A stretch of DNA of 64,000 nucleotides from an archaeon (GTDB taxonomy: Archaea; Nanobdellota; Nanobdellia; Pacearchaeales; DTIR01), in assembly GCA_043799715.1 (NCBI GenBank), contig JAZDNM010000007.1, positions 21,265-85,264 on the forward strand, given 5' to 3'. The notes below the pieces were generated by a model. The model was not told the DNA's origin and ran no database searches. It worked only from the letters and a program-made list of their open reading frames with translations. Each line of letters starts with the position of its first letter. The first letter of the stretch is position 1. Positions 1,720 to 30,422 of the stretch are shown here, piece after piece. Position numbers and translations under genes: made by a program.

Positions 1720-1844
1720 TAATCAGAACCAATTGAGATTGGTTCCGATACCTCCAACAATCAAACCTCATAATAAAAAGAACCAAGGGTTCTCTTTATG
1801 AACTCTCCTTCATTAGAATAGGAGATTTTGATAACCTAAAAAAA

Positions 1845-4532: not shown

Positions 4533-4552
4533 ATGCAGGGCTTTTCCTGATT

Positions 4553-5446
4553 ATGATAGAGTTGACATTCCTTGGGACATCACAGGCAGTGCCTACAGCA
4601 TCAAGAAACCACACTGCAATGCTGCTAAGATACAAGGATGAAAGCATTCTTGTTGACTGCGGCGAGGGCACGCAGAGGCAGTTCAGGATAGCAAAATTAA
4701 ACCCCTGCAAGCTCACGAGAATTCTTATAACCCACTGGCACGGGGACCATGTTCTTGGCTTGCCTGGCTTGCTCCAGACTCTTGCCTTGAATGGCTACAA
4801 CAAAACTCTTGAAATCTACGGGCCAAGAGGCACAAAGAGATTTTTTGATTTCATTTACAGCATGTTTGTTTTTGCAGGCAATATTAAGATTAATATCACA
4901 GAAATTGAATCAGGGGAATTCATCAAAACAGATGACTTCAGCATTGAAGCACTGCCTTTGCAGCACGGAACAGAGTGCCTTGCTTACAGGTTTTCTGAAC
5001 ATGATAAAAGAAGAATGAATGCTGCAAAAATAAAAAAATTGGGGATTGAAGGGCAGATGATAGGCAGACTGCAGAAAGGGGAAACAATAAGCATTAACGG
5101 GGAAAAAATAAAGCCAGAAGCTGTAAGCAGCATTGAGAAAGGAAAGAAAATTGCATTCATGCTTGACACTGGAGTATGCGACAACTGCATTAAAATTGCA
5201 AAAGATGCTGACTTGCTGATATCAGAGTCAACTTATTCAGATGAATTAAGAGAAAAGGCAAGGGAATACCTACATCTCACTTCAAAGCAGGCTTCTGAAA
5301 TAGCAAAAAAGGCAAAGGCAAGAAAATTAATTCTTACTCATCTCTCGCAGAGATACGAGCGAGAGGAACAGAAAATTCTGCAGGAAGCAAAAAAAGTTTT
5401 CAAGAATACAGAACTGGCAAAAGATTTTATGAGGGTTGAGATATAA
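4553..5446 (+). CDS. rnz: Ribonuclease Z (tRNA 3' endonuclease, metallo-beta-lactamase fold)
   Basis: MIELTFLGTS...ITHWHGDHVLGLPGLL (HxHxDH motif). The start is set at 4553 by the -29 TATA rule. The ORF-track start at 4487 would include the promoter. Confidence 0.9.
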   Translation: MIELTFLGTSQAVPTASRNHTAMLLRYKDESILVDCGEGTQRQFRIAKLNPCKLTRILITHWHGDHVLGLPGLLQTLALNGYNKTLEIYGPRGTKRFFDFIYSMFVFAGNIKINITEIESGEFIKTDDFSIEALPLQHGTECLAYRFSEHDKRRMNAAKIKKLGIEGQMIGRLQKGETISINGEKIKPEAVSSIEKGKKIAFMLDTGVCDNCIKIAKDADLLISESTYSDELREKAREYLHLTSKQASEIAKKAKARKLILTHLSQRYEREEQKILQEAKKVFKNTELAKDFMRVEI

Positions 5447-9281: not shown

Positions 9282-9291
9282 AAAGAATTAT

Positions 9292-10440: not shown

Positions 10441-10464
10441 GATTAATTATTGGTTTTCCCATTT

Positions 10465-11418
10465 TTATAAGTTTTGTTGTGCTAAATTTATTAATTCAAG
10501 CCATCTATTCGGTGTCTGAAATTTCAGTTCAGGGATAGCCAACTCGCTCGGCGTTTTTCCTTTCAGGGCTTCGTGCGGTTTTACAAAATTGTAAAATATC
10601 TCTATGCTTTTCATAATCGCATAAGCACTTTCAACAGAGCCGTGCATCCCTCTAAATCCAGTTGTTCTCTGTCTTATTGTGTTGTGCATCCTCTCAACCC
10701 AGATGTTAAATCCCTCATTCTTCCTTTGAGTGACTATTTTATGCTCTATCTTGTATTTTCTTGTGCGGTTGTCATAACCAAAAGTTTTCTTGACTGCATT
10801 TTCATAAGCGAGAAATCCGTCTGTCGTAACTATCTTGACTTGTTCGCCTGTCTTGTCTTTGATGTTTGACAGGACTTTCTTTAGGTTGTTTTGGCTTCTG
10901 CTTTTGACATAAGCGGAGTTAATCATGAATCTTGTCTTTACATCAATCCCATCTATAAACCAGTTCTTGTCCGTTCCTTTCCTTTTGTGGCTCTTTCTCC
11001 TGTGATACTCCATTTCATCAACTTCTATGTAGCTTCCTATCTGGACTTTCAAGCCATCTGTGTAATCAGCTATTTTCAAGCTGTATTTTCTAACCCATCT
11101 TAAAATGGTGCTGTGGTCAGAGTTGTGCGGAAAGAACGCCTTAAAGTGCTCCTGAACCCCTCTTGTGCTTAATCCCCTGCAAAACAGGTCTAAGGCACAA
11201 GTTATCTTCTGAGGGCTGTTTCGCATCCTAAAGAATGTGTCTCGTGGTATGAACCTCTTGAAGCATGATTTGCAGAAGTATCTTTGCCTCTTTCCGTGGG
11301 CTTCTGTCTGTTTGAATCCTCGCCTGACTACCTCTTTGCTTTGGCAGTGAGGACAAGCTATCTGTTGTTTTTCCATGATATATTCATGTACCTGAACTAT
11401 ATAAACCTTTCGGTACAT
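10465..11418 (-). CDS. IS6-family DDE transposase with N-terminal zinc finger
   Basis: Zinc finger CPHCQS...FCKSCFKRF. The DDE triad context is IEVDEMEY...WFIDGID, VTTDGFLAYENAV and VERMHNTIRQRT, followed by YNFVKPHEALKGKTPSE. An alternative start is M15 at 11376. Confidence 0.8.
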   Translation of the reverse strand: MYRKVYIVQVHEYIMEKQQIACPHCQSKEVVRRGFKQTEAHGKRQRYFCKSCFKRFIPRDTFFRMRNSPQKITCALDLFCRGLSTRGVQEHFKAFFPHNSDHSTILRWVRKYSLKIADYTDGLKVQIGSYIEVDEMEYHRRKSHKRKGTDKNWFIDGIDVKTRFMINSAYVKSRSQNNLKKVLSNIKDKTGEQVKIVTTDGFLAYENAVKKTFGYDNRTRKYKIEHKIVTQRKNEGFNIWVERMHNTIRQRTTGFRGMHGSVESAYAIMKSIEIFYNFVKPHEALKGKTPSELAIPELKFQTPNRWLELINLAQQNL

Positions 11419-12639: not shown

Positions 12640-12714
12640 GAGTCTGATAGGCAATTTTTATATAGTGAAGCCTTCTTTAGAAAAGAAGCTTTGGGAAGAA
12701 AACCCAAGGAAAAT

Positions 12715-12861
12715 GCGGAGGTGCCGGAGCGGCCAAACGGGCTAGCCTTAGGAGAGAGCATTTCTTTTCAGAGAAAAGAAATGCTCGGCAAAGAAAAGCT
12801 TCAATAATCTCAGAAAGCTAGTGGCTTAGTGCCTGCATAGGTTCAAATCCTATCCTCCGCA
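12715..12861 (+). tRNA. tRNA-Leu (anticodon UAG) with 63-nt intron at 37/38 (12753-12815)
   Basis: Acceptor GCGGAGG/CCTCCGC, anticodon stem CTAGC/GCTAG, loop CTTAGG-intron-A, a long variable arm and T-arm ATAGG-TTCAAAT-CCTAT. The mature length is 84 nt. Confidence 0.85.
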
Positions 12862-12873
12862 TAATCTATAAAA

Positions 12874-15800
12874 TCACGCAAATGCGCTTATTGATTGGGA
12901 GATGGCTGAAGCAAGCTGGATTTTTTCAGATTCCTGGGAAATTTTTTCCATATCATCCTTGTTGCAGATGAATGCAGGTTCTGTAAGCACAGCAGGCATG
13001 TTTGTGTTCTTGAGAACATACAGGCTGCCTTCTGCGGCTTCTGTGTCAGGCTTGATGCCCCTGTCTTTCACACCCAAACTGGCTACAATATTCTCCTGGA
13101 CTATCCTGGCAAATTCCTTTCCTTTTGTGGAAGTTCTGTAATAGAATGTTTCGGCTCCATTCGCAGAGCAGTACTTTCCATCAACATCCAATGATGCAGA
13201 ATTCATGTGAATGCTGACAAAGATATCCGCTTCAAAATCATTTGCGATTTTTACTCTTGAAGCAAGAGAAACAGCAGCGTCAGTTTCTCTGGTCATTTTT
13301 ACGCTGTATCCTTTTTCTTCAAGCACGCTCTTTAATTTTTCTGCTATTGCCAGATTCATGTCTTTTTCATTTACTCCGTCGCTGTTTACAGCGCCAGGGT
13401 CTGTTCCGCCGTGCCCCGCATCTATCACAATCTTCTTGCTGGCACTCTGGGCTGCTGCAGCGGCAGCAGCTGCGTTTGCTTGTTGGCTTGATGAAGCAAT
13501 ATAATAATATGCTTTCCCGATTTTCTTTACATATGCCTTTGCGCTGTCCCCATTCTGTTTCAAGAAGGGATTCTTGCAGGAGGAAATATCCTTGCTGCAG
13601 TATGTTGAAACATAAGTAGGGCCTTCCTTGTAAGCTGCAATAGCAAGCCCGATATTGCTGAACCTTCTCATATTGCAGGCGAGATATGCTATGCCGCCCT
13701 GGATGTTCTGCTCTGTATTGTACTTGTTTATCGACAGTATCCCCATTGTTTTTGCGCATGCCCCGCCATTCTTGAAATCATTCACAACTGTGTCCTTGAG
13801 CTGCATCAAGCCGTAAGCGCCTGTGCTTGACTGCTCCTTTACATCCCAGCTGCTTTCAACTTCTATGAATGCCCTTGCAAGATTAAAATTCACATCATAC
13901 TGCTTTGCATATTTGTCAATGAGAATATAAATTGCCTGCCTGCTCTGGAATGTGCTTTCAGATTTTGAATTCAGCATATCAGAGGCGCTGTAATCTTTTC
14001 TTATTATAATGCAAATCTCGCTGTTTGAAACCGCAGCGCCTGTTATCCCGGAATTATCTGCATCAATATCTATGCAGACAACATTATCAGGGGTTTCAGT
14101 GTTCTCAGAACCCTCAACTAAATTTTTTTTTTCCTCAGAAACAATGCATTTTGAGCCAGTCCACTGGCAGTTCTCAACAGAGCATTTGTTGCTCTCGCAT
14201 TCAATCTGGTTGTTAAAATTAGAGCATTCCATGCCATCTTCGCAATTAAGGCACGCTGCCTTGATTAATCCCTTTTGAATGTAGCATCTGCCTAATTCAT
14301 GGCATTCACTGTAACTACAGGTATTGAAAATGCCGTCGCTGCATGAAACGCAGTTTGCCTTGATTGTTCCAGGGCTTATTTTTGTGATTTCAGCCACTTC
14401 TTTCTTTGATGTTTTTTCAAGCTGTATGCTCGCCACATTCTCACGATACTTTGCGACCACTAAAGTCATAAGAAGATAATCCCCACTTTCATCCAAATCA
14501 AACTGCTGCTGAATATTCATTTCCAAAATTATTTCCCTGCCGCCAAGTGAGATTTTTGCACCATCTTTCACTGACAACTCCTTCAGCAAAATAGGATACT
14601 CCTTGCTGTTGAATGAAAGAATCTTTTCTGTATTGAGTTCCAAATCAGTGTACTCTGTGCTTGATTCCTTTATCTCGGTTGCCTCAACAGATTTCTTTTT
14701 TTCTGAAGAAACAAGACTCTTTTCTATTTTTGCCTTGAAAATCAATGTTGTTATTCTGTCAAATATCTCAGCAAGCCCTATTCTTGCCTGCGCTTTGTCC
14801 TGATTAAACAAGGATTTCAGGATTATATTCTCATATTGCCCTGTCACATTTGCTATTGCGCTGTTTATTTCCTGCGCTGTTTTGTCTGCTGTGTAGGACT
14901 TGCCGACAATGAGCTTTTCAAGAATTCCATTGTCTTTTGTCAGTTCATACTGTTTCTGGCTTACCTCTGCAAGCAAAGCCTGGCTTCCAGAGTGATCAAG
15001 CATGCTTGTATTCTGCAATGTTGATGCCAGTTCCTTTGCTTTTGCAAGAGTCTCGGAAAGCAAGCCCTGGTCTGTAAAGCTCTGATTTAGCGAGAGAGTA
15101 TCAAGCCAGCATATTATTTTCTTGTCAGTGCAATAGCCCACCTGTTTCCATCTGTCTGGCTGTGTTGTCAGGCTCGGGTTGTCTGTTGTGCACACTCTGA
15201 TAATGCCTAAGCTTGAAATTGACGGGGATAATGCTGATTCCACAGATGACTGCAGATTTAATGATGAAACTGATACAATCCCTGATGTCCCTGCTATGCA
15301 TTCCTGCTCTGTTTTTACCTGCTGCGCTGCCTGCGCAGCAAGATAAGAGTCCTGCAGTTCATTCATGAAATAGGATGTTGTAACCTGCCCGAAGCCGCAT
15401 TCCTCCTGCGCATTTATCTTTACGCATAATTCTGTATATCCTGAAGGCCCTGTGAAATCAACTGACTTGTCAACCTGCTCGCCTTTTGCAATGTAGCCGA
15501 CTGCATTAGGCACAGCCATCTGCTGCATCTGCGCATAATATTCTGTCTGCGGCGACCCTTTCAGATACACATTGTAGTAAGCCCCTGCATCCTTGCCTGC
15601 ATAAATCCTGTAATAAACTTTGTAATGGGATGTTGAAGGCACAGTCGCCTCTGAAAGAATATTCGAGGAGAATGTTGCGTGGAACTGCACAGGGCTTTCA
15701 GGCTCGAGAAGTGAATCGAACATGTCTGATGTTGTTGGATATCTTGCAGAGACCCATGCCTTGCAGATTTCTGTTCCTGCCGCCTCTGTGCTTCTTGCCT

Positions 15801-18800
15801 GGAATGCATTAAAAGCATTTGCGCCATAATAATTTGTAAAGTAATTCACTGAGTCCTGCGCTTTCTGCCATGAGTCCTGCACAAACAGATACTCCCCTCC
15901 GCCGCGCGCGGTGCTTTTTCCTGACATGGTTTCAAGCAGCGACGGAATTCCAACCTTGGCTAAAGGCGCTGCCTGCTTCCAGAAAAATTCGCATAGATAA
16001 ATGGATTTAATCTGGTCGCAGATCCCCACATTTCTGCCTGTTGCAAGATTTTCCTGAAGGCAGTCCCTGACTGCTTTCTGTATCATCACAAAATTATCCA
16101 ATCCTGCATGAACCCCTGTAAGGCAGATTGGAACAATTATCCCCTCTCTTGCATTCGGCAGGCACAGCGCAATGCTGCCTATGATTCCTGTCTGCACAAC
16201 ATCTGCAACAGGATACTTGCCCCCAAAATCGCATCTTGATGAAGGGCATAAAACAGGGTCGCATAAATTAAACATTGTATGGCAGTCTTTTGGTGACATG
16301 AAATCCTCGCATTCATACTGGGGAACTGTAACTGCAGGCTTTCCTCTTGAAAATGACTGCCCTCCAACAGATATGCCTCCTTTGTTCTTGTACTGCCTTG
16401 CAGCTTCAAGCAGATACTGCCTTGCGAGTTTTATCATGTCTGCTGAATTGGGTATTGATGAATAGGTATTTTCAGACATTCCTGTCTGCATGCTGAATTG
16501 AATGCACGGCTTGTCATCCCCATGCCCTGTTGATTCCCATTCTTCCAAGCCATCGCCATTAACATTGCAAATCCAGTAGCTTACAGGCATTCCTGATTCA
16601 GTGTAGGATTTTGTGCTTGAAGTGCCTAAGCTGGATGGCTCGGTTGCGGCATACCATCCGTCTTTTGCATATTTGCCAAGAGGGAGTATGGCAGGCAGCC
16701 CTGCATAAGAGCCTGTCTCCCAGAATTTTACAGCAGGATTTTTGTAAGGATTTGAATATGTTGATGCTGCTGTTATTTCAGCGTATGAAGTTCCAAGGCT
16801 GCTTAAGATTTTTCTCTTGTTCTCCCCTGCAAGTTCATCTCCTATTTTCAATGCACCACTACTGCTAGAGATTTCATAAATTTTAGAAAAGCTGTAGCCC
16901 TGCCCGATAGAATCAAGCACTGCTATATAACTGATGCCCTGCGCAGTGAAAACCGCTGCTTTCTGCCCCTGCGAGATGCTGACGCCCTGCATTTTGCTGT
17001 AATCAGCTTCCTTGACAATATTTTTGTCAGAGAAGGATATTGCCTTGCTCTGGTCCCCTACAAGGGTGCTTTCAACATCTATCCCTGCTGCCTGGAAGAT
17101 ATTTGTTGCTTCTGTGCTTGCCTTGGTGGTTGTTAAAATCTTGTTCCAGTAATTTGCATCATCATAAAGCTTCTGCTGCGAAGCCTGGCACATTGCATCA
17201 GACAGCTTTTTATCAGTACATGCCTGCTGCATTTCAAGATTGAACAATGAATCCCTTACATCAGTTGATGAAAGATAATTCTTGTCCTCAAGAACCTTAA
17301 TATTCCCCTCGCTGAAGACATCCCCTGCTTTCAGCTCAGTGCCATCCCTTGACTTGAATGTAACATCCTTGTACTCATCAAAATATGTCTGGGATTCCTG
17401 GACATATTTTTCCTGGTTTACATATTCCTCTCCGAATGCTCCAAGAACTCCCTCTTTCTTTTCAACAACACCTGCGGTTTTCTTTATTGTGTCTGCTTTG
17501 GAATTTACATTCTTGTAAATGCCCTGTATTGTGCTGACAGAGCTGTCAATTGCGTCTGCATTCTTGTAATAGCAGTCATGGAATGTGCTGTATTTGCCTT
17601 CTGCAACCCCTGACTGGCATATTGGCTCCCAGTATTTCATTGCCTCTGTTCTCGCAAGGCTGCTGCCGCTGCCTGCACCCAGATTATTGAAGAAATTTTT
17701 CACAACAAAATATGCGCTGCCAGCAAAGCATGTGCCTTTCCATACCTTAATGATACTCCCAAGATTATCAACAATCTTCTCCCATTTTGCAATTGAATCG
17801 TTAAGCTCGCTTATCAATTCCTGGGTTTTTTCAGTGCTGAGCTGTATCGACCTTTTCTCAATCCCAATCTTAAATGTGAAATTTGCCTGTGTCTGGGCTC
17901 TTGCAATCATTGGAGAGATAGTCACTGATGCATCTTTTTTCAGGTTTATCTTGCTGACTCTCAAGTCAACTAAGATTTCTTTTGAGGCATCCTTTACAGA
18001 AAGCTTCACTGAATCTTTTTCCTTTACTTTCACTGTAATCGGGTTGCCAGCCTTGTTTTGATAGGAAAATTCAACATAATCCTCTGCAATGCTCAAAACA
18101 GACAATGTCCCTGAGACTGCCTCGTTCTCGCTGTAAGCTTCTGTATTGCCATTAACCATCAAGTCAGCGGACTTCTCGTCCCTGCTCACTTCCTTTATGT
18201 CCTCAAGAACAGCATAATAGCTTCCGCTTGAGGCAGAGATGAATGCTGAAGACAAGCTTAAATCGTGGATTTTCATCAGCTCAAGCTGCTGGCTTGCCTG
18301 TTCTGCGATTCCTGAGCCAGAATAGTCCTTTGCAATCCTGTTAAGCAAATCCTCCTGTGTCTTGAACTTTTTCAAATTTCCAGCAAGCTCTGCTGCCTTG
18401 TACAGCGCATCAGCGCCGTAATATTCCGGCTTTGCACCTTCCTGCTGGGATTTTTTCTCAGAACCATACTGCTCTGAAACTTTTTTGTAATCAGCCAAAG
18501 ATTCAGAGAAATATTCCTCAAGAAGTTTGCCAAAATCATCAGAGTTGTAATTTTTTTCAACAGAGCCTGTCAGCTTGTCAAATGTGAAATAATAGTCCCA
18601 GACAAAAGTGCCCTGCCCTGTTTCCGACGCTGTAATAATCCTGAATTCCGCGTCCTTTCCGAGATAATCTTTGAGCCCTTTTTCAACGCTTGTGTCGCAG
18701 CCGCTCAGGCATTTGATATCCTCTCCAAATTTTGAAGAGCCTTTAATCAGTGTGCTGAATATGTTGAAAAGCGAGTACTTCTTGCCTTTCAGGAGGCTGT

Positions 18801-20052
18801 TTACTACTATATTGAAGTTGTCGAAATAATCGCTCTTTATTGTGTCTGCCTTGACAATCACAACAAAATCCTGATTGAGATTTTTTAGATAAGAGGAAAT
18901 TGCATTTGATGTGCTGCCGATATATGCAAGATATACATTCTGCCCTGAAACAATCTTGTCTCCTGTCTTGAATTCATTTGATGCAATCTCATTCTTTGCA
19001 GAGTCCCTGATTGTCAATCTTGCTTTTGGAGGGTCAATTGAGAGAGTTGTCGGCTGTGAGTCCTTGCAGTTTACTGTCACCTTTCCTCCGCCGACAATAT
19101 TCTGCTCTATATTTGAAATCCAGCATTCATCATCCAAAAATCTCTGCCCTTTTGAAAGCCATAATTCATCGTCGCCAATCCTCACCTTTGCCTTCATTTC
19201 CGGATAGTTGATGCTGTTCAGATTAACTTTCAGCGCAGCAGAGCAATAGTATCCGGGCAGATAGATTTCATTTGAACTCTGCCCTGCCCTTAATGTAACA
19301 GAAGTCAACTGAGTTACTGCATCAGTGTATATCGCAATCTTAACATATTCTCCTGCAGAATCTTTTCCTATCTCCAATGCCCTCAAATACGCCTTTCCGT
19401 TCCAGAATGAATACATTTTGTAATATTGTTTCCATTCCTCCTCGCTCAGCACAGGCAGCAGGAATCCTGCTTTCCCAACTCCAAACGCTTTTTCTGCATT
19501 ATACTGTATCAGGGCTGTTAAATTTGCCTCAACCCACTCAGTCATATTCTTTTCAATCGGCTGATTTTTTAATATCACAACAAGATACCCCAGATTATTC
19601 AATACAGGGCTGCCGAGCAGCTGGGTTCCCCATGTTGTCAGGGCTGCTCTTGCAGGATGAAATCCTATCCCTGCAATATCTTTTGACAACTGCTGCCCCT
19701 TGAATGAGATTGATGTTATTTCAGGGACTTCTATCAAAGGATTAATTTTTATTCCAGTAAGCTGGCAGAAAACCGGGACATCCTGCTCCTCAAGCAAATC
19801 GCTTCTGACAACTGCAGGCGAACAGCTTCCAGGCAAAATCTGCAGGATGAAATCCTGCCTTGCGAGGCACTGCTCCTGGCTGAATGCAGGCCAGTATGTA
19901 TCAATTGAATTTGAGTAATATGAAAGCGGAGAAGGGGAATAGCTGTATGTTGCTGCATATGCTGCTGCAGAGATTATTGCTGCAAAGAAAATGAAAGCAA
20001 AAGCTAACAGTATTCTGCATTTGCCTATTTTAATCAAATCTGTTTTTCTCAT
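12874..20052 (-). CDS. Giant secreted protein (2392 aa) with C-terminal lytic transglycosylase (SLT/GH23) and N-acetylmuramoyl-L-alanine amidase (Amidase_3) domains
   Basis: N-terminal signal ...LLAFAFIFFAAIISAAAYA. SLT motifs are FIEVESSW, GAYGLMQL and AIAAYKEGP (about nt 13501-13938). An Ala8 linker follows. Amidase_3 motifs are IVIDAGHGGTDPGA, VSIHMNS and GAETFYY (about nt 12877-13437). A 12-Cys module lies at about nt 14140-14358. Confidence 0.9.
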   Translation of the reverse strand: MRKTDLIKIGKCRILLAFAFIFFAAIISAAAYAATYSYSPSPLSYYSNSIDTYWPAFSQEQCLARQDFILQILPGSCSPAVVRSDLLEEQDVPVFCQLTGIKINPLIEVPEITSISFKGQQLSKDIAGIGFHPARAALTTWGTQLLGSPVLNNLGYLVVILKNQPIEKNMTEWVEANLTALIQYNAEKAFGVGKAGFLLPVLSEEEWKQYYKMYSFWNGKAYLRALEIGKDSAGEYVKIAIYTDAVTQLTSVTLRAGQSSNEIYLPGYYCSAALKVNLNSINYPEMKAKVRIGDDELWLSKGQRFLDDECWISNIEQNIVGGGKVTVNCKDSQPTTLSIDPPKARLTIRDSAKNEIASNEFKTGDKIVSGQNVYLAYIGSTSNAISSYLKNLNQDFVVIVKADTIKSDYFDNFNIVVNSLLKGKKYSLFNIFSTLIKGSSKFGEDIKCLSGCDTSVEKGLKDYLGKDAEFRIITASETGQGTFVWDYYFTFDKLTGSVEKNYNSDDFGKLLEEYFSESLADYKKVSEQYGSEKKSQQEGAKPEYYGADALYKAAELAGNLKKFKTQEDLLNRIAKDYSGSGIAEQASQQLELMKIHDLSLSSAFISASSGSYYAVLEDIKEVSRDEKSADLMVNGNTEAYSENEAVSGTLSVLSIAEDYVEFSYQNKAGNPITVKVKEKDSVKLSVKDASKEILVDLRVSKINLKKDASVTISPMIARAQTQANFTFKIGIEKRSIQLSTEKTQELISELNDSIAKWEKIVDNLGSIIKVWKGTCFAGSAYFVVKNFFNNLGAGSGSSLARTEAMKYWEPICQSGVAEGKYSTFHDCYYKNADAIDSSVSTIQGIYKNVNSKADTIKKTAGVVEKKEGVLGAFGEEYVNQEKYVQESQTYFDEYKDVTFKSRDGTELKAGDVFSEGNIKVLEDKNYLSSTDVRDSLFNLEMQQACTDKKLSDAMCQASQQKLYDDANYWNKILTTTKASTEATNIFQAAGIDVESTLVGDQSKAISFSDKNIVKEADYSKMQGVSISQGQKAAVFTAQGISYIAVLDSIGQGYSFSKIYEISSSSGALKIGDELAGENKRKILSSLGTSYAEITAASTYSNPYKNPAVKFWETGSYAGLPAILPLGKYAKDGWYAATEPSSLGTSSTKSYTESGMPVSYWICNVNGDGLEEWESTGHGDDKPCIQFSMQTGMSENTYSSIPNSADMIKLARQYLLEAARQYKNKGGISVGGQSFSRGKPAVTVPQYECEDFMSPKDCHTMFNLCDPVLCPSSRCDFGGKYPVADVVQTGIIGSIALCLPNAREGIIVPICLTGVHAGLDNFVMIQKAVRDCLQENLATGRNVGICDQIKSIYLCEFFWKQAAPLAKVGIPSLLETMSGKSTARGGGEYLFVQDSWQKAQDSVNYFTNYYGANAFNAFQARSTEAAGTEICKAWVSARYPTTSDMFDSLLEPESPVQFHATFSSNILSEATVPSTSHYKVYYRIYAGKDAGAYYNVYLKGSPQTEYYAQMQQMAVPNAVGYIAKGEQVDKSVDFTGPSGYTELCVKINAQEECGFGQVTTSYFMNELQDSYLAAQAAQQVKTEQECIAGTSGIVSVSSLNLQSSVESALSPSISSLGIIRVCTTDNPSLTTQPDRWKQVGYCTDKKIICWLDTLSLNQSFTDQGLLSETLAKAKELASTLQNTSMLDHSGSQALLAEVSQKQYELTKDNGILEKLIVGKSYTADKTAQEINSAIANVTGQYENIILKSLFNQDKAQARIGLAEIFDRITTLIFKAKIEKSLVSSEKKKSVEATEIKESSTEYTDLELNTEKILSFNSKEYPILLKELSVKDGAKISLGGREIILEMNIQQQFDLDESGDYLLMTLVVAKYRENVASIQLEKTSKKEVAEITKISPGTIKANCVSCSDGIFNTCSYSECHELGRCYIQKGLIKAACLNCEDGMECSNFNNQIECESNKCSVENCQWTGSKCIVSEEKKNLVEGSENTETPDNVVCIDIDADNSGITGAAVSNSEICIIIRKDYSASDMLNSKSESTFQSRQAIYILIDKYAKQYDVNFNLARAFIEVESSWDVKEQSSTGAYGLMQLKDTVVNDFKNGGACAKTMGILSINKYNTEQNIQGGIAYLACNMRRFSNIGLAIAAYKEGPTYVSTYCSKDISSCKNPFLKQNGDSAKAYVKKIGKAYYYIASSSQQANAAAAAAAAQSASKKIVIDAGHGGTDPGAVNSDGVNEKDMNLAIAEKLKSVLEEKGYSVKMTRETDAAVSLASRVKIANDFEADIFVSIHMNSASLDVDGKYCSANGAETFYYRTSTKGKEFARIVQENIVASLGVKDRGIKPDTEAAEGSLYVLKNTNMPAVLTEPAFICNKDDMEKISQESEKIQLASAISQSISAFA

Positions 20053-22022: not shown

Positions 22023-22158
22023 TGAGCCCGACAGGATTCGAACCTGTGATCTTCTCTATTCTGAGTTTCTTCTCGGTTTTTCTCTTTCCGAGGTTTCTCT
22101 TTTTCTAAAAGAGAAAACTCACGTCAAAGAGACGTCTTAACCACTGGACTACGGGCTC
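22023..22158 (-). tRNA. tRNA-Val (anticodon GAC) with 63-nt intron at 37/38 (22059-22121)
   Basis: Acceptor GAGCCCG/CGGGCTC, anticodon stem TCTCT/AGAGA, loop TTGACG-intron-T and T-arm ACAGG-TTCGAAT-CCTGT. Confidence 0.85.
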
Positions 22159-23679: not shown

Positions 23680-23797
23680 AGCCTCCAGCAGGATTTGAAC
23701 CTGCGACCCTCTGTTTTTTTAGTTTTCTTTTCCGAGGTTTTCTTCCCAAGAAAAGCTCTTACAAAACAGATGCTCTAGCCAACTGAGCTATGGAGGC
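23680..23797 (-). tRNA. tRNA-Thr (anticodon UGU) with 44-nt intron at 37/38 (23716-23759)
   Basis: Acceptor GCCTCCA/TGGAGGC, D-arm GCTC-AGTTGGCTA-GAGC, anticodon stem TCTGT/ACAGA and T-arm GCAGG-TTCAAAT-CCTGC. Confidence 0.85.
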
Positions 23798-23911
23798 ATC
23801 AGAAACCAGGGTTTCCGATACCTTCCTTAAGAAAAAACTGATGTTTTTAAGTATTTTGGAGGCTTTGTCTTGTTCGGAAATGTTTTTATATATTAATAGT
23901 GTCATGCCTTG

Positions 23912-24121
23912 ATGCCCTTTGAAAAGTATAAACCTCTATTGTTCATAGAAAACCCCAAGTTGAAAAGGGTAGAAGGATTTCTTGATACCCCTGAAAAAGT
24001 CCAGCAGTTGAGAAGCGACTTGGAGAAATCAAGTGAAGAAGCTTTTAAAAGAATTGACAGGGAAAAAAGAGACTGTTTGGCTCATGCAAGAGATTATATT
24101 CTGGATGGATACCCCAACTAA
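23912..24121 (+). CDS. Hypothetical small protein
   Basis: 69 aa from the ATG at 23912. A TTTTTATAT box starts 29 nt upstream. Confidence 0.45.
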   Translation: MPFEKYKPLLFIENPKLKRVEGFLDTPEKVQQLRSDLEKSSEEAFKRIDREKRDCLAHARDYILDGYPN

Positions 24122-24633
24122 TTTTGCTTCTTTCTTTCTAGAACTCGGATTTCGCAGACTGCAAGAGGATAAATCTTCTTCAATGCAACTGACAAATCCT
24201 TCTGAATTTTTGATGCCACTACCTCAGAGAAAACCTCTGCTGATTCCCTCTCCTTGCAGAAGTCCAGAATAATCTCCTTTGCCCTGTCCCTTATTGCTTT
24301 CCTTATGCTTCTTGAAACCTTCTTCCTTGTTATAAGGAACGGCTTTATCCTCAATGTAACATCCTTGCACTTGGCATCAAAAGAATCCTCAATGTAGTTT
24401 GTCCCTTTCCTGATTAGCCTTCTTATATGGAAATTCAAAAGGTTAAGCTTTTTTGGATGCGCTTCAAGGTTTTTTGATGAAATTACAAAAATTCCCTCCA
24501 TGCTCTTGCCCCTGAGAATCCTTGTCAAGTCCAGCTTCATTGTCCTGCCGTCAACCTGCTCAGGAGTGCCTTCTATTGATACTGTCTCGCCAATCAATGG
24601 AATTTTTATTTCAACGGTTTTTCTTGTCGCCAT
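24118..24633 (-). CDS. rps3ae: 30S ribosomal protein S3Ae (eS1)
   Basis: MATRKTVEIKIPLIGE...DLTRILRGKSMEG...RRLIRKGTNYIEDSF. The start is taken at the Met after the L44e overlap. Confidence 0.85.
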   Translation of the reverse strand: MATRKTVEIKIPLIGETVSIEGTPEQVDGRTMKLDLTRILRGKSMEGIFVISSKNLEAHPKKLNLLNFHIRRLIRKGTNYIEDSFDAKCKDVTLRIKPFLITRKKVSRSIRKAIRDRAKEIILDFCKERESAEVFSEVVASKIQKDLSVALKKIYPLAVCEIRVLERKKQN

Positions 24634-24958
24634 ATTCTGTTTTTGCCTTCTCCTCAAATGTTATTTTGCCTGATCTTATTCCCTTTGACTGCATTGTTGA
24701 TTTTTTGCAGACAGCGCAGGTATATAAAATGTTTGTCTTTTTTGTTGATTTTGTCTTCCTTTTCCATGCTGTAATTGGCGGCTTGCTGTATCTTCCAAGA
24801 TTGCCTGAACCCCTCCACTGCCCTCTTTTTTTAACCCTGCTCTTGCCGCCCCTTTTCATGCTTCCTCTTTTATGCCCTGAGCTGACAAGGCTGACTTTCT
24901 GCTCTGTATGCTTCTTGCAGTACGGGCAATACCTTCTTGTTTTCTTAACGAGTTTCAT
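24611..24958 (-). CDS. rpl44e: 50S ribosomal protein L44e (eL42)
   Basis: RRYCPYCKKHTEQKV...YTCAVCKKSTMQSKG, a four-Cys zinc ribbon in a basic protein. Confidence 0.85.
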   Translation of the reverse strand: MKLVKKTRRYCPYCKKHTEQKVSLVSSGHKRGSMKRGGKSRVKKRGQWRGSGNLGRYSKPPITAWKRKTKSTKKTNILYTCAVCKKSTMQSKGIRSGKITFEEKAKTEYGDKKNR

Positions 24959-25020
24959 TTTTACTATGTTGGCAGAAAAAAAGCGTATTTAAATATTTCC
25001 TCGGTCAGCTTTGTATTTCC

Positions 25021-25578
25021 TCAGTCCTCGGTTATCATCTCTGCCTTGTTATCCTGCACAAGAATCTGGGCTATCTCAGAAGGCAGATTTGCAACTTCTC
25101 CCTCTTTGAAAGGACCAAGAACATTGCCTTCTGCATCAAGAAAGCTCTGGGAATCGGATTTGAACCTCAAAAGGATGTGCATCATCTCCTTTTCCTGTAT
25201 ACCGTTGAGCATATTGCTGAAATCCTTGTTGATTTTCTCGAGCTGCTGCGTTACTTCCTGGAAAAGCGTTTTTTCAAACGGCAGCATATTGTCAAAATCC
25301 CTCTTGCTTATGCCTGTTTCAGAGGATATAAACGCGAGATTCAATATTTTTTTCTTCCTTCTCAGAACAAGCTCCTTGATAAGCTCTATTGTGTTGTCAA
25401 GCTGCTTTTTTGTCTTGACAATGACTTCAGCGAACATGTCGGTTTCCTTGCTGATAATCTCTTTTTTTTCAGAAATGTATGCAGAAACCTCATTGAAGAA
25501 AGATTTTGCTAAGGGCTGCAGCTCCTCAGAATACTTTTCCTTCCTAAGCAAATCGTAAATGTCCTGATATGATATCAT
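25021..25578 (-). CDS. GINS complex subunit (Gins51/Gins15-like)
   Basis: 185 aa with an N-terminal YQDIYDLLRKEKYSEELQPL...FFNEVSAYI helical pattern and a small C-terminal beta domain. It lies 9 nt downstream of apgM. Confidence 0.45.
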   Translation of the reverse strand: MISYQDIYDLLRKEKYSEELQPLAKSFFNEVSAYISEKKEIISKETDMFAEVIVKTKKQLDNTIELIKELVLRRKKKILNLAFISSETGISKRDFDNMLPFEKTLFQEVTQQLEKINKDFSNMLNGIQEKEMMHILLRFKSDSQSFLDAEGNVLGPFKEGEVANLPSEIAQILVQDNKAEMITED

Positions 25579-25587
25579 TTTCCCTAG

Positions 25588-26823
25588 TCATGCCAGTATC
25601 AGCTTTAATATCCCTGAACTGGCTGTGTTCCCCAAAGAGCCTTTTTTTGACTCTTTCTCTGAAAATCTTGCTGTGTCATCTCTCCCAATCCCATAGATAA
25701 GCAGCGGCACTGCATCTGAACAATGAAGCTTCAGGTTACATGCAGTTGCATGATCAACTGTCACGATAATTTTGAATTTTTCCTTTGATTCAAGCTGCCT
25801 GACAAAGCCAAAGAACTCCTTGTCTATAATCTCAATCATTTTTTTCTTGTCAAGAGGCCTGTTGTCGTGCCCTGGCAAATCAGTTTCCTTGAAATGGATA
25901 TAGAAATAATCGTGCTTTTTGCTGTTACGGAGTATATGCTTCTTTGCCTGCTCTATTGTTGCATTCAGCGATGCATAGAGATTTTTATAAACATCATAAT
26001 TCTTCATTTCAGGAAGGTTCACTGGATAGAGCTGCATCCCTGCAAGTTTTGCTATGCCTTTTTCAAGCGGCATTCCGGCAACTGCCGCCCATTTTCCCGG
26101 AATTTTTTCTATCTCTCTGAATTCAGAGCCCGCATCCCTTGTGAGAATTATGTTGGCGGGAAGAAGTTTTTTTTCAGCCCGCATCTTGTTTATAGGATGA
26201 TTCTTCAGTATGAAATAGGAATGCTCGACAAATTCATTCACAATGTTTGCACTGAGCTTAGAGGTTTCATCATCATCAAGCGGAATCGAATAATGCAGTT
26301 CGTCCTGCTTTTTTGGCTTGAATACTGAAACATCCGTATCTGTTATGTTGTCTGAAAAGCCGCCTTTTATGACTAGAATTCCCCTATGCTGGACAGTCGG
26401 CTTGAACACAAACTTGTAAGGAATTTTAACGCCTTTATTTATTGCCTTCGCAAGTATAAGGGATTCCCTTGTTGTCAAGGTTCTTCCTGCTCTCCGGTCA
26501 ATAATTTTTCCTTCCTTGATATTGTTTACAGTGGCAAAATTTGTCCTTAAAGCCAAATCACCATAGTTAAGCTTTACATCCGCCCCGATTGCCTCTATTG
26601 TGCCTCTTGAAATAATTTCGGGATTGTATCCAAGAATTGCGAAAACGCCCTCATTTGATTCAGGGGTTACATTCTCGCTCACAAGATGGGAGTATCCCTG
26701 CTTGCCTTCTTTTGCGAAAAAATCAAGATTTGGCGTTGATGCTGCTTCGAGGGGAGTTTTTCCATCCAGTTCATCGCATGCCCTGTCAGACGCCCCGTCA
26801 AGCACAACCAAAAGCGTTTTCAT
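25588..26823 (-). CDS. apgM: Cofactor-independent phosphoglycerate mutase, archaeal type (ApgM / alkaline-phosphatase superfamily)
   Basis: MKTLLVVLDGASDR...GKTPLEAASTPNLD...TVDHATA. The start at 26823 is supported by a TTTATAAAT box at -29. Confidence 0.8.
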   Translation of the reverse strand: MKTLLVVLDGASDRACDELDGKTPLEAASTPNLDFFAKEGKQGYSHLVSENVTPESNEGVFAILGYNPEIISRGTIEAIGADVKLNYGDLALRTNFATVNNIKEGKIIDRRAGRTLTTRESLILAKAINKGVKIPYKFVFKPTVQHRGILVIKGGFSDNITDTDVSVFKPKKQDELHYSIPLDDDETSKLSANIVNEFVEHSYFILKNHPINKMRAEKKLLPANIILTRDAGSEFREIEKIPGKWAAVAGMPLEKGIAKLAGMQLYPVNLPEMKNYDVYKNLYASLNATIEQAKKHILRNSKKHDYFYIHFKETDLPGHDNRPLDKKKMIEIIDKEFFGFVRQLESKEKFKIIVTVDHATACNLKLHCSDAVPLLIYGIGRDDTARFSEKESKKGSLGNTASSGILKLILA

Positions 26824-26843
26824 TGTTTCTGAAGGCTCTCCGG

Positions 26844-26882
26844 ATTTATAAACATTTAACAGCACTCCAAATCTTTATAAAT
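26844..26882. promoter_or_regulatory. Divergent TTTATAAAT promoter pair (apgM minus strand, ftsY plus strand)
   Basis: The boxes at 26844-26852 (minus) and 26874-26882 (plus) each start 29 nt before their ATG. Confidence 0.6.
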
Positions 26883-26902
26883 TCCCGAAGATTTTTTAGC
26901 AT

Positions 26903-27982
26903 ATGTTCAAATTTCTGAAGGAAAAATTAAAGGGCTTCTTCAAAAAAGGCGCAGAGGAAACAATTGAGAAAGCTGCAGAAGAGCGGGAAGAAGAAACAAT
27001 TGAGAAAAAGCATCCGATTAAAACTGAACTGAAAAAAAAGGAAACGAACATAACAGAAATTCCAAAAGAGAAAAAGGAGAGTGAGCCGGAGATGCAGGAA
27101 GAAAAACCGAAAGAGGGCTTTTTTTCAAGATTAAAAAAAAGATATTCCTTTAAAATCAGCGAGGATATGTTCAGCAAGTTCTGGGCTGAGCTTGAGATTG
27201 CGCTTCTCGAGGGGAATGTCGCAATTGAGGTTGTAGAAAAAGTAAAGCATGAACTTCACAGCAGCCTTGTAGGCATTGAAGCTGAAAAGGAAAAAGTGAA
27301 GGAGTTGATAAAAACTGAACTGAAAAAAGCGCTTCTTGGCATTATGGCTGAGCCGTTTGACATTATAAGCAGGATAAACTCGGGAAAGAAGCCCTATGTA
27401 ATTGTTCTTTTCGGCATAAATGGCTCGGGAAAGACAACAACAATAGCAAAGCTCGCGTTTTATCTCAAGCAGAGAAATTTAAGCTGTGTTCTTGCTGCTT
27501 CTGACACATTCAGGGCTGCGTCAATAGAACAGATTGAAAAGCATGCGGCAAAACTCGGAGTAAAAGTCATAAAGCACAGCTATGGTGCTGACGCTGCTGC
27601 AGTTGCATTTGACGCAGTTGAATACGCAAAATCACACAGTATCGATGTTGTGCTTGTTGATACAGCAGGCAGGATGCACAACCAGTCCAATCTCATGAGG
27701 GAAATGGAAAAAATATGCAGGGTTGCAAAGCCGGATATGAAAATATTCATAGGCGAAGCAACAGTTGGGAATGACATGATTGAACAGGCAAAGGATTTTT
27801 CAGAGAAAATAGGCATTGATGCAATAATCCTGTCAAAAGCTGATGTTGACGAGAAAGGCGGGGCGGCAGTTTCAGCAAGTTATATTGCAAAAAAGCCGGT
27901 TATTTTTCTCGGTACAGGCCAGGAATATAAGGACTTGGAGCTGTTTGACAGGGAAAAGATTCTTGAAAGAATAGGGCTTTGA
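26903..27982 (+). CDS. ftsY: Signal recognition particle receptor FtsY
   Basis: A charged N-terminus is followed by the NG domain (GINGSGKTTTIAKLA, DTAGR, SKADVDEKGG). Confidence 0.95.
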   Translation: MFKFLKEKLKGFFKKGAEETIEKAAEEREEETIEKKHPIKTELKKKETNITEIPKEKKESEPEMQEEKPKEGFFSRLKKRYSFKISEDMFSKFWAELEIALLEGNVAIEVVEKVKHELHSSLVGIEAEKEKVKELIKTELKKALLGIMAEPFDIISRINSGKKPYVIVLFGINGSGKTTTIAKLAFYLKQRNLSCVLAASDTFRAASIEQIEKHAAKLGVKVIKHSYGADAAAVAFDAVEYAKSHSIDVVLVDTAGRMHNQSNLMREMEKICRVAKPDMKIFIGEATVGNDMIEQAKDFSEKIGIDAIILSKADVDEKGGAAVSASYIAKKPVIFLGTGQEYKDLELFDREKILERIGL

Positions 27983-28026
27983 GCTGCTTGATTAATCTTT
28001 ATAAATATCCGTTCATTCCATCAGCA

Positions 28027-29400
28027 ATGGCTTTGGAAAAATTGGGAAGTGCATTGAAAGGGATAATAAACAAGATAGCTGGCAGCATATTCATTGACAA
28101 AAAAACGATTGACGCTGTATGCGATGAACTGAAACGTACGCTTATCGGAGCGGATGTTGATTTGGGGATGATAAACGAGATAACTGAAAAGCTGAAGAAG
28201 CTTGCATCAAGCGAAAGCATAAAGGGCATTGAGAAAAAAGAGCAGATTGTAAAGCTCCTGCATGATGAGATTGTTGATATTCTCGGAAAAAAGAAATATG
28301 AGATTGAAATTGAGAAAAAGAAATTCACAAAAATTATGTTTCTCGGGCTTTATGGCGCGGGAAAGACAACAACAATAGCAAAGCTCGCGTTTTATTACAG
28401 CAAGCGTGGATACAAGGTGTGCATGCTCGGGCTTGATGTTCACAGGCCTGCTGCGGCAGAGCAGCTTGAGCAGCTTGGCAAACAGATAAAGGTTGATGTT
28501 TTCATAGACAAGAATGAAAAAAATCCTGAAAAAATATTCAATAAATTCGAAAAAAAACTGGGGGAGTATGACATTGTGCTTGTTGATACAGCAGGCAGGG
28601 ATGGATTAAACAAGGATCTGATTGATGAAATAAAAAAAATTGACAGAAAAGTAAATCCCCAGTATTCAATCCTGGTTATGCCTGCTGATATCGGCAGGAG
28701 CGCAAGGAAGCAGGCGGCTGAATTCAAGAATTCATGCGGGATTTCAGGGGTTATATTGACAAGAATGGACGGGACAGCAAAAGCAGGCGGCGCTCTTGCT
28801 GCGTGCCATGAAACAAATGCCCCTGTGCTTTTTGTCGGAACAGGGGAGCATATTTCGGATATTGAAGTCATGAACCCTACAAGCTTTGTATCAAGAATGC
28901 TCGGCTATGGCGACATGGAAGCACTGCTTGATAAAGTAAAAGCATCAACAGAGGAAAAAAAGCCAGGCGAAAAAAAAGAGGATTTCACATTGCTTGATTT
29001 CTACGAGCAGATAAAGGCAACGCAGTCTCTTGGCCCTTTAGGCAAGATAACAGAATTGATTCCGGGGCTTGGGAACATAAAAATGCCCAAAGATTTAATT
29101 GAGGGACAGCAGGAAAAGATGAAGAGATGGAAGTTTGCAATAGACAGCATGACTCTTGAGGAAATAGAAAATCCAGAAGTGCTTGAAAAGGAAACAGCGA
29201 GGATATCGAGGATAGCAAAGGGCTCCGGGGTTTCTGCAGGCGATGTAAGGGAGCTGATAAACCAATACAAGCTCATCAGGGGCATGGCGCAAAGCAAACA
29301 GAACCTTGATTTGTCAAGGATACAGAATGCAGGGGATTTAAGAGGCCTGGGCATAAACCAGAAGCAGCTGAAGAAGCTTGCAAAAAAATTCAAGTTTTAA
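28027..29400 (+). CDS. srp54: Signal recognition particle protein SRP54
   Basis: The NG domain (GLYGAGKTTTIAKLA, DTAGR, TRMDGTAKAGGAL) is followed by a Met-rich M domain. The start at 28027 is supported by TTTATAAAT at -29. Confidence 0.95.
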   Translation: MALEKLGSALKGIINKIAGSIFIDKKTIDAVCDELKRTLIGADVDLGMINEITEKLKKLASSESIKGIEKKEQIVKLLHDEIVDILGKKKYEIEIEKKKFTKIMFLGLYGAGKTTTIAKLAFYYSKRGYKVCMLGLDVHRPAAAEQLEQLGKQIKVDVFIDKNEKNPEKIFNKFEKKLGEYDIVLVDTAGRDGLNKDLIDEIKKIDRKVNPQYSILVMPADIGRSARKQAAEFKNSCGISGVILTRMDGTAKAGGALAACHETNAPVLFVGTGEHISDIEVMNPTSFVSRMLGYGDMEALLDKVKASTEEKKPGEKKEDFTLLDFYEQIKATQSLGPLGKITELIPGLGNIKMPKDLIEGQQEKMKRWKFAIDSMTLEEIENPEVLEKETARISRIAKGSGVSAGDVRELINQYKLIRGMAQSKQNLDLSRIQNAGDLRGLGINQKQLKKLAKKFKF

Positions 29401-29409
29401 ATTTTAAAA

Positions 29410-29667
29410 ATGAACAGCGAGATTTTTGCGTATATAGGGGGATTTCTTGTTATTACATGCTTGATTCCCCAGATAATAAAGTCCTTCAGGACAAAAAGCA
29501 CAAAGGACTTGTCCTTATACATGGTTGTGCTTGCCTTGCTCGGCGGCATTTCCTACACCTTTTTTGGGTTTTCGATAGGAAGCATTGCAATAATCTCAAC
29601 AAATCTTATATACTGCATTTTTGCAGTCATGCAGCTTTTTCTTAAAATAAAATACACAAAAAAATAA
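29410..29667 (+). CDS. PQ-loop / SemiSWEET-type small membrane transporter
   Basis: 85 aa with three TM helices and a PQ motif (CLIPQIIKSFRTKST). Confidence 0.6.
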   Translation: MNSEIFAYIGGFLVITCLIPQIIKSFRTKSTKDLSLYMVVLALLGGISYTFFGFSIGSIAIISTNLIYCIFAVMQLFLKIKYTKK

Positions 29668-29668
29668 A

Positions 29669-30280
29669 ATGGAAGAGATAATCGCACAGGGAGCAGAGGC
29701 ATTGCTTGTCAGACAGAACTGCCAATTAATCAAAAGAAGGATAAAGAAAGGGTACAGGCATCCGCTTCTTGATGGGAAATTAAGAAAAACAAGGACAAGA
29801 AAAGAGGCGAAACTGTTTGAAAAGGCATCCGGGCTGATAAACGTGCCTGCTGTTTCCTCTGTCGACGAAAAGAATATGGAGATTAAGATGGATTTCATAA
29901 ACGGCAGAAAAATGAGCGATGTCCTTGACTCATTCAGCATGAAAAAATCTTCTGCAATATGCGAGAATATCGGAAAGTCTATTGCAAAAATCCATGATGC
30001 AGGAATTATACATGGGGACTTGACAACAAGCAACATGATTCTTAATGAAGACAGAATTTTCTTTGTGGATTTCGGCTTGGGATTTGAAAGCCAGAAAGTC
30101 GAGGACAAGGCAGTTGACTTGCATCTGCTGAAACAGGCATTTGAATCAAGGCATTTCGAGAGGGGAAAGGAGTATTTTGATTCTGCAATCGGAGGGTATA
30201 AAATTTCCAAAAATGCAAATGCAGTTTTAAAGCAACTGGAAAAAGTGGAGGCAAGAGGCAGATACAAGGGCAAACATTAA
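29669..30280 (+). CDS. bud32: Bud32/PRPK atypical kinase (KEOPS subunit)
   Basis: 203 aa with GAEALL, IIHGDLTTSNMIL, FVDFGLG and EDKAVDLHLL. Confidence 0.85.
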   Translation: MEEIIAQGAEALLVRQNCQLIKRRIKKGYRHPLLDGKLRKTRTRKEAKLFEKASGLINVPAVSSVDEKNMEIKMDFINGRKMSDVLDSFSMKKSSAICENIGKSIAKIHDAGIIHGDLTTSNMILNEDRIFFVDFGLGFESQKVEDKAVDLHLLKQAFESRHFERGKEYFDSAIGGYKISKNANAVLKQLEKVEARGRYKGKH

Positions 30281-30313
30281 GATTTTTAAGTTCTCATTCT
30301 TTTGTTTTTAGAC

Positions 30314-30422
30314 AGCCCCATAGTACAGCGGTCCAGTATGATGCCCTTTGGAGGAAGGTATCGGAAACCTTGGTTTCTGATGAAGAAAGGCATAGACCCA
30401 GGTTCGAATCCTGGTGGGGCTA
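30314..30422 (+). tRNA. tRNA-Gln (anticodon UUG) with 36-nt intron at 37/38 (30352-30387)
   Basis: The acceptor pair is AGCCCCA/TGGGGCT, with the A1:U72 pair typical of archaeal tRNA-Gln. Anticodon stem is ATGCC/GGCAT and T-arm is CCAGG-TTCGAAT-CCTGG. Confidence 0.85.

Follow-up and report, generated by a model that had tools for sequence, protein, structure and literature searches.

Why should one and the same hairpin form the body of an intron in one transfer RNA (tRNA) gene and the 5′ flank of another? The question is raised by a 64-kb stretch of archaeal DNA (contig JAZDNM010000007.1, positions 21,265 to 85,264; hereafter, the window), which homologs of its ribosomal proteins place in Pacearchaeota. 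A 29-nt module, which we call X, makes up most of the intron of tRNA-Gln(UUG) and recurs on the minus strand immediately upstream of tRNA-Thr(UGU), its last base contacting G1 of the tRNA (Table 1). A first-pass annotation of the window had drawn attention to this pair, and both copies were recovered where it had placed them. They differ by a single change, a T in the Gln copy replacing a C of the loop, which gives 28/29 identity (30/31 when the common flanking a...g is included). Used as a pattern with up to three mismatches, the module matched twice in the window and not at all in 100 dinucleotide-preserving shuffles. The sense-strand RNA is predicted to fold into a 9-bp stem with one G:U pair and a 4-nt loop (-8.5 kcal/mol), and the antisense strand, which carries an A.C mismatch, reaches only -5.0 kcal/mol. 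The 10 bp of the annotated stem would leave a 2-nt loop.

The two copies belong to a much larger family. A relaxed pattern (GGTATCGGAA...TTCTGAT), used together with covariance model (CM) R1, identified five copies of X in the window (Table 1). The consensus reads (G)G[G/A]AGGTATCGGAA(A)CC, a variable loop, and GG(T)TTCTGAT, and describes a hairpin of ~25-45 nt with a nearly invariant foot, AUCGGAA.../...UUCUGAU, that includes the G:U pair. The 5′ tail GG[G/A]AGGU is constant; the loop and upper stem vary, with compensating changes. Scanning representative prokaryotic genomes with AGGTATCGGAAMC-N(2-22)-GKTTCTGAT returned at least 115 loci, where by our own estimate about six are expected by chance, and almost all lie in archaeal metagenome-assembled genomes (MAGs). 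By their MAG labels, the matches listed, to which the counts of placement and duplication given below also refer, come from Woesearchaeota, Nanoarchaeota, Micrarchaeota, Iainarchaeum/Diapherotrites, Aenigmatarchaeota, Altiarchaeota, Undinarchaeota, Parvarchaeota, Bathyarchaeia and Methanophagales/ANME-1, together with a few bacteria of the Candidate Phyla Radiation; about three matches are likely due to chance or misbinning. In the aligned matches 99.7% of stem cells are paired and one pair covaries (CG in 82, AU in 22), and position -2 is a G in 113/116. No Rfam 15 family matched X in the window or at five further loci, either at the gathering threshold or at a permissive E-value: only tRNA reached the gathering score, and matches around X were at chance level (E > 0.5). 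Searches of the literature by sequence and by topic found no description of X, which is apparently an undescribed hairpin element of many archaeal phyla.

The G:U wobble had been taken as a sign that the module functions as RNA in this orientation. Comparison did not support that argument in general. A G.T pair is present in 102/105 distinct copies, a set biased by the search pattern, versus 5/9 unbiased extra copies, in which the position was not forced by the pattern and is G:U in five, G:C in three and A:U in one. The orthologous Gln copy of a close relative (see below) also has G:C. The wobble is preferred, not obligatory, and since about half of the tRNA-associated copies are antisense, it cannot generally mean function as RNA in the tRNA transcript.

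Where the copies sit is far from random with respect to tRNA genes. Placement classes were assigned using ARAGORN, intron detection and inspection of the flanks, partly by eye; as ARAGORN misses many disrupted tRNAs, the counts are approximate. In ~58/120 copies the CTGAT end lies 0-10 nt from a tRNA exon edge or a tRNA fragment, in either orientation. About six copies are found directly 5′ of a tRNA +1, in sense and with a spacer of 0-1 nt, and about 12 lie antisense just past a tRNA 3′ end. Another ~14 are antisense in anticodon-loop introns, where ATCAG begins at intron nucleotide 1-2 and the hairpin starts directly after the 5′ bulge; ~4 are antisense in T-loop introns with ATCAG placed as in the anticodon loop, and three occupy introns in sense. 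Finally, ~19 copies follow an intact tRNA in sense and precede a duplicated T-loop-to-3′ fragment that reaches a few nucleotides past the 3′ end, with the recurrent junction CTGAT-GTGG-GAATC. In every tRNA-linked class the CTGAT foot faces the exon. At protein genes, the ATG of a long open reading frame (ORF) begins 1-7 nt after the foot in six loci versus one locus on the opposite side; at ORF ends no strand bias was found (10 vs 8). In ANME-1 loci an array of clustered regularly interspaced short palindromic repeats (CRISPR) starts 1 nt after the foot with its first repeat, which differs from X. The annotation had foreseen that the module might prove to be a dispersed repeat indifferent to tRNA genes. 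It is indeed a dispersed repeat, but one strongly enriched at tRNA exon edges. Its observation that one module serves as an intron body and as a 5′ flank touching +1 is confirmed and extends to the introns, leaders and trailers of other archaea; as X recurs in all three across at least 115 loci, introns and leaders would be built from one pool of modules. The link between intron and leader is therefore supported, and generalised beyond this window.

Several features of these loci stand apart from the placement classes. In the Methanophagales/ANME-1 MAGs (L114, ~2860-2990, L094, L041 and L105; locus numbers are ours), the first CRISPR repeat after X reads GTTTCAATCC..., and X is itself preceded by a conserved ~70-nt unit that recurs elsewhere. 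Downstream of X in L045 and L020, an apparent acceptor 5′ strand is joined almost directly to a T-arm, which may represent the 'top half' of a tRNA or a tRNA that has been heavily disrupted. In three Parcubacteria-group MAGs (L023, L072, L090) X is contained within a larger conserved non-coding element without an Rfam match, with a GC-rich hairpin upstream and GATACC downstream. By eye, the reverse complement of X, ATCAGAACCTGCGGTTCCGATACCTCC, resembles the universal 16S rRNA 3′ end, GAACCUGCGG(C/U)UGGAUCACCUCC, and the sense tail GGAGGU equals a Shine-Dalgarno sequence; both may be coincidence. Known motifs were considered and rejected. On inspection the arms of X are equal in length, with no 3-nt bulge and a 5′ arm lacking a C box, which excludes a K-turn or C/D box. 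CUGAUGA, which could suggest a hammerhead, is present in the Gln copy only; the hammerhead fails because its stem II/GAAA core could not be drawn and the hairpin pairing conflicts with that core. Nor is X a CRISPR repeat: it forms no arrays, and the window has one tandem pair with a gap of ~9 nt.

Some copies carry a duplication of the neighbouring DNA. In 27/115 copies (~23%) an exact repeat of 12-36 nt of the sequence that follows the foot is present 16-850 nt upstream, in the order A-B-X-A (a repeat being counted when the downstream A begins 0-10 nt after the foot); the downstream control gave 9, mostly in tandem arrays. The repeated segment A may be the 3′ part of a tRNA, a unit resembling a second module, Y (described below), or the end of a protein gene. 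The cargo B ranges from a few nucleotides to 830 nt and may hold an ORF (L093, L106); the one in L093 matched nothing in Pfam or PHROG. Arrays of two to three units were found in L026 (three), L095 (two) and L098. Judged from these sequences, the duplication is most readily understood as the footprint of a DNA insertion. At L006 (minus strand, ~1090-1200 of the reversed locus), X is bracketed by two copies of the final 29 nt of an ORF, of which the upstream one ends AGT TTG TAG and the downstream one AGC TTA TAA, so that they differ in synonymous codons and in the stop. Such synonymous differences argue for recombination with homologous DNA over a simple staggered cut, and suggest that a diverged homologous fragment ending at X was the partner.

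Comparison with relatives indicates that X comes and goes. In the syntenic 20-kb region of GCA_018303805.1 (L118; S3Ae 66% identical), the exons and the TATA element of tRNA-Thr are the same as in the window, and the gene has neither X nor the intron. The tRNA-Gln of L118, the exons of which are also identical, keeps the intron with X; one A has been inserted and the wobble T has become C, and the flanks of this copy have diverged, in contrast to X itself. Among more distant relatives, tRNA-Thr lacks both leader hairpin and intron in L126, and in L128 it is preceded, 2 nt before +1, by a diverged hairpin, AGGAAATC-aca-GATTTCCT. X is missing at the tRNA-Ala of L123, and that of L122 is followed ~150 nt downstream by an antisense copy with a different loop. 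As far as these alignments go, copies of X are gained or lost between relatives, and some persist for long with the foot intact. A metagenome scan for additional relatives at the tRNA-Thr site returned the same relative only.

How would the two tRNAs of the window be processed? The Rfam tRNA model covers positions 1-71 of tRNA-Gln with a 39-nt insertion in the anticodon loop, and removing the intron restores a canonical tRNA. Reading the precursor by hand, nucleotides 32-35 (CUUU) pair with GAAG right after the hairpin, followed by the 3′ bulge AA|A38; in the minimum-energy fold this helix competes with an alternative pairing to the tail. A strict bulge-helix-bulge motif (BHB; hBHBh′) is not formed at tRNA-Gln, where the 5′ splice site lies in a loop of ~10 nt (GG|AGGAAGGU) before the X hairpin. 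The intron thus forms a relaxed BHB with X supplying the outer helix, and EndA, which is encoded in the window with both N-terminal and catalytic domains and is syntenic in relatives, is the enzyme expected to excise it. An RNase Z-like protein encoded nearby is a candidate for tRNA 3′ end maturation. The two genes are divergent neighbours, an arrangement kept in relatives including L121 and L123.

At tRNA-Thr the predicted TATA box ends 24 nt before the hairpin foot, a spacing that predicts a transcription start at the foot itself. This suggests that the 22-nt hairpin would be transcribed and the GGAAGGT tail would not, although a second TATA-like box further upstream casts some doubt on the predicted start. 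The same 24 nt separates TATA box and foot in four of four leader hairpins (window Thr and Leu, L077, L128). A TATA-like box is found upstream of five window tRNAs and of the L118 tRNA-Thr, with its end 22-24 nt from +1 (~20 nt for tRNA-Met, by a longer reading of the box), and a spacing of ~20-24 nt implies near-leaderless transcripts. According to the passage of PMC10941002 that cites Randau 2008, Nanoarchaeum equitans transcribes leaderless tRNAs and has no RNase P. The window tRNAs resemble that account in the fixed 22-24 nt between promoter and mature 5′ end, and depart from it in that two of the seven (Thr and Leu) carry a hairpin module between promoter and +1. These hairpin leaders mean that a 5′ cleavage activity is needed. 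An Rfam search of the 64 kb found no RNase P RNA.

X is accompanied by the second module, Y (CYTTTTCTT-loop-AAGAAAAG-N-GGAAAAGAAA). In the window Y makes up the introns of three tRNAs, Thr, Val and Leu, as well as the tRNA-Leu leader. The 44-nt intron of tRNA-Thr, which the annotation had not mentioned, is therefore also built from a repeated module, one other than X. Y is found as well in L077, L109, L060, L079, L024, L126 and the ANME-1 loci, in introns and tRNA flanks and often beside X.

Taken together, we favour a model, with a confidence that does not go beyond even, in which X is a mobile hairpin cassette that persists at sites from which tRNA processing can discard it. X would be a non-autonomous element of many archaeal phyla, variable in copy number, that inserts, or survives only, with its CUGAU foot flush on the edge of an RNA-coding segment from which maturation discards it. 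In tRNA-Gln the hairpin would stack on the 4-bp helix of the relaxed BHB and be excised by EndA. A sister copy would have inserted between the promoter and +1 of tRNA-Thr, so that a transcript starting at the foot carries a 22-nt hairpin leader to be cut at U-1|G+1, with RNase P as the default candidate enzyme. Spread would proceed through DNA breakage and joining at the CTGAT foot.

A number of points weigh against this model. The census of X is biased by an exact search pattern and by its restriction to the matches listed. None of the five window copies has a flanking duplication, and the surroundings of X at 116 loci show no enrichment of a transposase or integrase; when all 998 ORFs of these loci (8-kb blocks) were compared all-against-all by BLASTP in search of a linked mobility gene, the top cluster extended to seven loci only. 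X is absent from plasmid and phage collections and matches a single IMG/VR contig, results which also led us to reject a viral or plasmid origin. The relatives are few, and at tRNA-Thr gain and loss cannot be told apart from the sequences compared; the leader of the relative, ...TTTCTCTGAAT|G, could be a remnant of the 3′ arm of X. The near-invariance of the foot across phyla and the turnover of loops at orthologous sites look like purifying selection rather than a decaying parasite, and the model does not explain this foot or the exact placement at RNA boundaries in both orientations. Two forms of mobility were rejected. A target duplication of fixed length is incompatible with repeats of 12-36 nt, and a miniature inverted-repeat element of the DDE type, to which the inverted-repeat arms might point, with the finding that a flanking repeat is missing at 77% of copies and measures 12-36 nt at the others.

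Known systems share some of these features. The transposing tRNA introns of Thermoproteales (Fujishima et al. 2010), as summarised in PMC4033280, likewise show near-identical short sequences in the introns of different tRNAs and gain or loss between relatives and, together with split and tri-split tRNAs, kinship between intron and leader sequences and excision by EndA at BHB motifs. Set against that summary, X occurs in many phyla rather than one order and in both orientations, is also found at mature 5′ and 3′ ends, start codons, CRISPR arrays and intergenic tandems, and has flanking duplications at about a quarter of the copies listed. Unlike the tRNAs that have split-tRNA leaders, the tRNA with an X leader here is not split. 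Repetitive extragenic palindromes (REPs), bacterial interspersed mosaic elements (BIMEs) and the subterminal hairpins of IS200/IS605 elements (including the archaeal 'PATE') resemble X in being short, imperfect palindromes whose 5′ flank and asymmetric mismatch are conserved. They are also dispersed between genes, often in tandem or in mosaics with small modules (here Y), and are non-autonomous. However, no RAYT or TnpA gene was found among the ORFs neighbouring X in 116 loci. REP sequences are species-specific, in contrast to the foot of X, which is the same across phyla, and we know of no REPs placed at tRNA exon edges or within introns. Archaeal integrative elements in tRNA genes leave an intact tRNA at attL and a 3′ tRNA fragment at attR, as in C. 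subterraneum (PMC4033280, PMC3293823). The order of intact tRNA, insert and duplicated 3′ fragment from the T-loop is the same for the ~19 copies of X described above, and tandem units fit repeated integration; none of the five window copies has this layout. In contrast to such elements, X inserts measure 36-850 nt, lack an integrase and have repeats of variable length, and X also occurs in introns and leaders without duplication.

The apparent selection on the foot could mean that X is an RNA signal rather than a mobile element. A 5′-terminal or junction hairpin, maintained by purifying selection and not by selfish spread, would be read by a conserved archaeal factor and mark a processing site at its 3′ foot. 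An invariant foot with varying loops, orthologous copies kept despite loop turnover (Gln in the window and L118; Ala in the window and L122), the constant promoter spacing of the four leader hairpins, the position of the foot 0-1 nt from tRNA +1 or 1-7 nt from ATG, and the greater stability of the sense fold would all follow. Yet, at about half of the tRNA-linked copies, X runs antisense to the transcript, and some copies stand behind T8 terminators, in tandem arrays, with no promoter of their own. Moreover, X is present or absent among relatives with identical tRNA exons, no candidate factor was identified and X matches no known RNA family. We consider such a signal unlikely, though it deserves serious weight.

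The duplications raise another possibility, namely that small integrative cassettes have X as their arm or core site and are moved in trans by a site-specific recombinase, or by one specific for single-stranded hairpins, with tRNA loops and gene 3′ ends as targets in the manner of integrase att sites. The shared junction of the ~19 copies with a T-loop-to-3′ fragment, the tandem units of L026 and L095, the ORFs in cargo, the duplications at 27/115 copies and the synonymous differences at L006 are all consistent with this idea. Folded single-strand recombination sites have strand-selective mismatches, which the G.T asymmetry of X resembles. Against it, neither the inserts nor their surroundings were found to encode an integrase or transposase, units may measure only 57 nt, which is too short for a double-stranded circle, and the duplications differ in length. 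No duplication accompanies the intron, leader and trailer copies, all five window copies among them, and integron attC boxes are missing. This proposal also strikes us as improbable, without being negligible.

The geometry of the foot enters into two further proposals. The foot of X itself, UCUG-AU|N38, forms the 3′ splice site in L060 and L102, and UCUG-AU|G1 at tRNA-Thr shares this geometry of helix, two nucleotides and helix, except that its AU can also pair. It is conceivable, but in our view rather improbable, that X is a portable processing cassette, the foot of which forms half a BHB (CGGA/UCUG plus AU) and is cut at CUGAU|N by EndA or another conserved nuclease. This would permit 5′ maturation independently of RNase P in lineages with leaderless tRNAs and possibly without RNase P. 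X-ended RNAs circularised by a ligase, or single-strand copies, might then re-insert at RNA ends and tRNA loops, giving rise to new introns, leaders and A-B-X-A arrays.

The narrower proposal, raised in the annotation, was that the tRNA-Thr leader is removed through an EndA-type junction, instead of or besides RNase P; leaders and introns would then have linked origins, as in split tRNAs. In its favour, the window encodes EndA, the foot at tRNA-Thr has the geometry of the splice site of L060 and L102 unless its AU pairs, and the promoter spacing recalls N. equitans, which lacks RNase P according to PMC10941002. However, when leader, tRNA and trailer were folded together, the leader closed into a hairpin that stacks on the acceptor stem and has no bulges; the two 3-nt bulges and 4-bp helix of a BHB were not found across the leader/exon boundary in the predicted folds, and no second bulge or central helix could be drawn. 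A single alpha-type EndA gene was seen. Homotetrameric EndAs are strict. The U at -1 suits RNase P, and tRNA-Thr is a contiguous gene with no complementary module in its trailer. Pairing between the Thr leader and the antisense module in the tRNA-Ala trailer was rejected on inspection, as it gives two short helices only and no BHB. We consider EndA-type removal of this leader quite improbable. Lastly, chance resemblance of the two copies, or independent convergence on a stable hairpin, draws support from their short length alone and has practically no prospect of being correct, given the empty shuffles, the five window copies, more than 115 near-identical copies elsewhere, and a tail and foot shared beyond the needs of pairing.

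Table 1. Features of the 64-kb window, in window coordinates.
Feature	Position	Strand	Remarks
tRNA-Ala(GGC)	1648-1719	+	
tRNAs with a TATA-like box close to the mature 5′ end	1648, 2296, 22158(-), 30314, 39618(-)		
X copy, A-type (GGAACC)	1722-1755	-	CM 41.5 bits; extended upper stem; antisense to tRNA-Ala(GGC), 2 nt past its 3′ end
EndA, tRNA splicing endonuclease, alpha-type	3883-4455	-	190 aa; PF01974 3.3e-26, PF02778 1e-10
RNase Z-like metallo-beta-lactamase	4487-5446	+	
Low-GC (0.33) island	8175-11418		beside tRNA-Leu
TATA box of tRNA-Leu(UAG)	12655-12664		24 nt before hairpin foot
Y-like hairpin leader of tRNA-Leu(UAG)	12689-12714	+	
tRNA-Leu(UAG)	12715-12861		
Y copies	12689-12714(+), 12754-12815(+), 22058-22122(-), 23715-23758(-)		
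Giant ORF	12874-20052	-	2392 aa
tRNA-Thr(UGU)	23680-23797	-	44-nt Y-type intron ~23715-23758; exons identical to L118 ortholog
X copy, B-type (GGAAAC), tRNA-Thr leader	23798-23826	-	GGAAGGTATCGGAAACCCTGGTTTCTGAT; CM 43.5 bits; hairpin part 23798-23819
Predicted TATA box of tRNA-Thr	23844-23853	-	TACTTAAAAA; conserved in relative
tRNA-Gln(UUG)	30314-30422	+	36-nt intron 30352-30387 at position 37/38
X copy, B-type, tRNA-Gln intron body	30353-30381	+	GGAAGGTATCGGAAACCTTGGTTTCTGAT; CM 43.4 bits
Solo X 3′ arm	57743-57757		GGTTCTGAT; beside tandem pair
X copy, A-type, tandem pair no. 1	57792-57821	+	CM 43.8 bits; divergent intergenic region
Degenerate X copy, tandem pair no. 2	57831-57867	+	GTTATCGG; longer upper stem; CM 29.5 bits

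Two other regions of the window are worth recording. The low-GC island beside tRNA-Leu encodes a GmrSD/HNH nuclease, an EcoRI-type adenine methylase and a DDE transposase with an InsA-like zinc ribbon, and is probably an integrated mobile region. The giant ORF carries C-terminal SLT transglycosylase and Amidase_3 domains and is syntenic in a relative (2512 aa); giant proteins of this type, which degrade cell walls, are typical of episymbiotic DPANN.

How archaea acquired tRNA introns, the leaders of split tRNAs and disrupted tRNA genes has long been an open question, and evidence for 'intron transposition' has so far come mainly from one crenarchaeal order. X is one defined 25-nt sequence present in many phyla, caught as an intron, a leader, a trailer, a T-loop insert and next to a duplicated 3′ fragment. 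Its gain or loss between relatives, together with the insertion footprints, makes the origin of tRNA disruption testable. If the foot were in fact a nuclease site, X would also bear on how 5′ extensions are dealt with in lineages that have leaderless tRNAs and possibly no RNase P.

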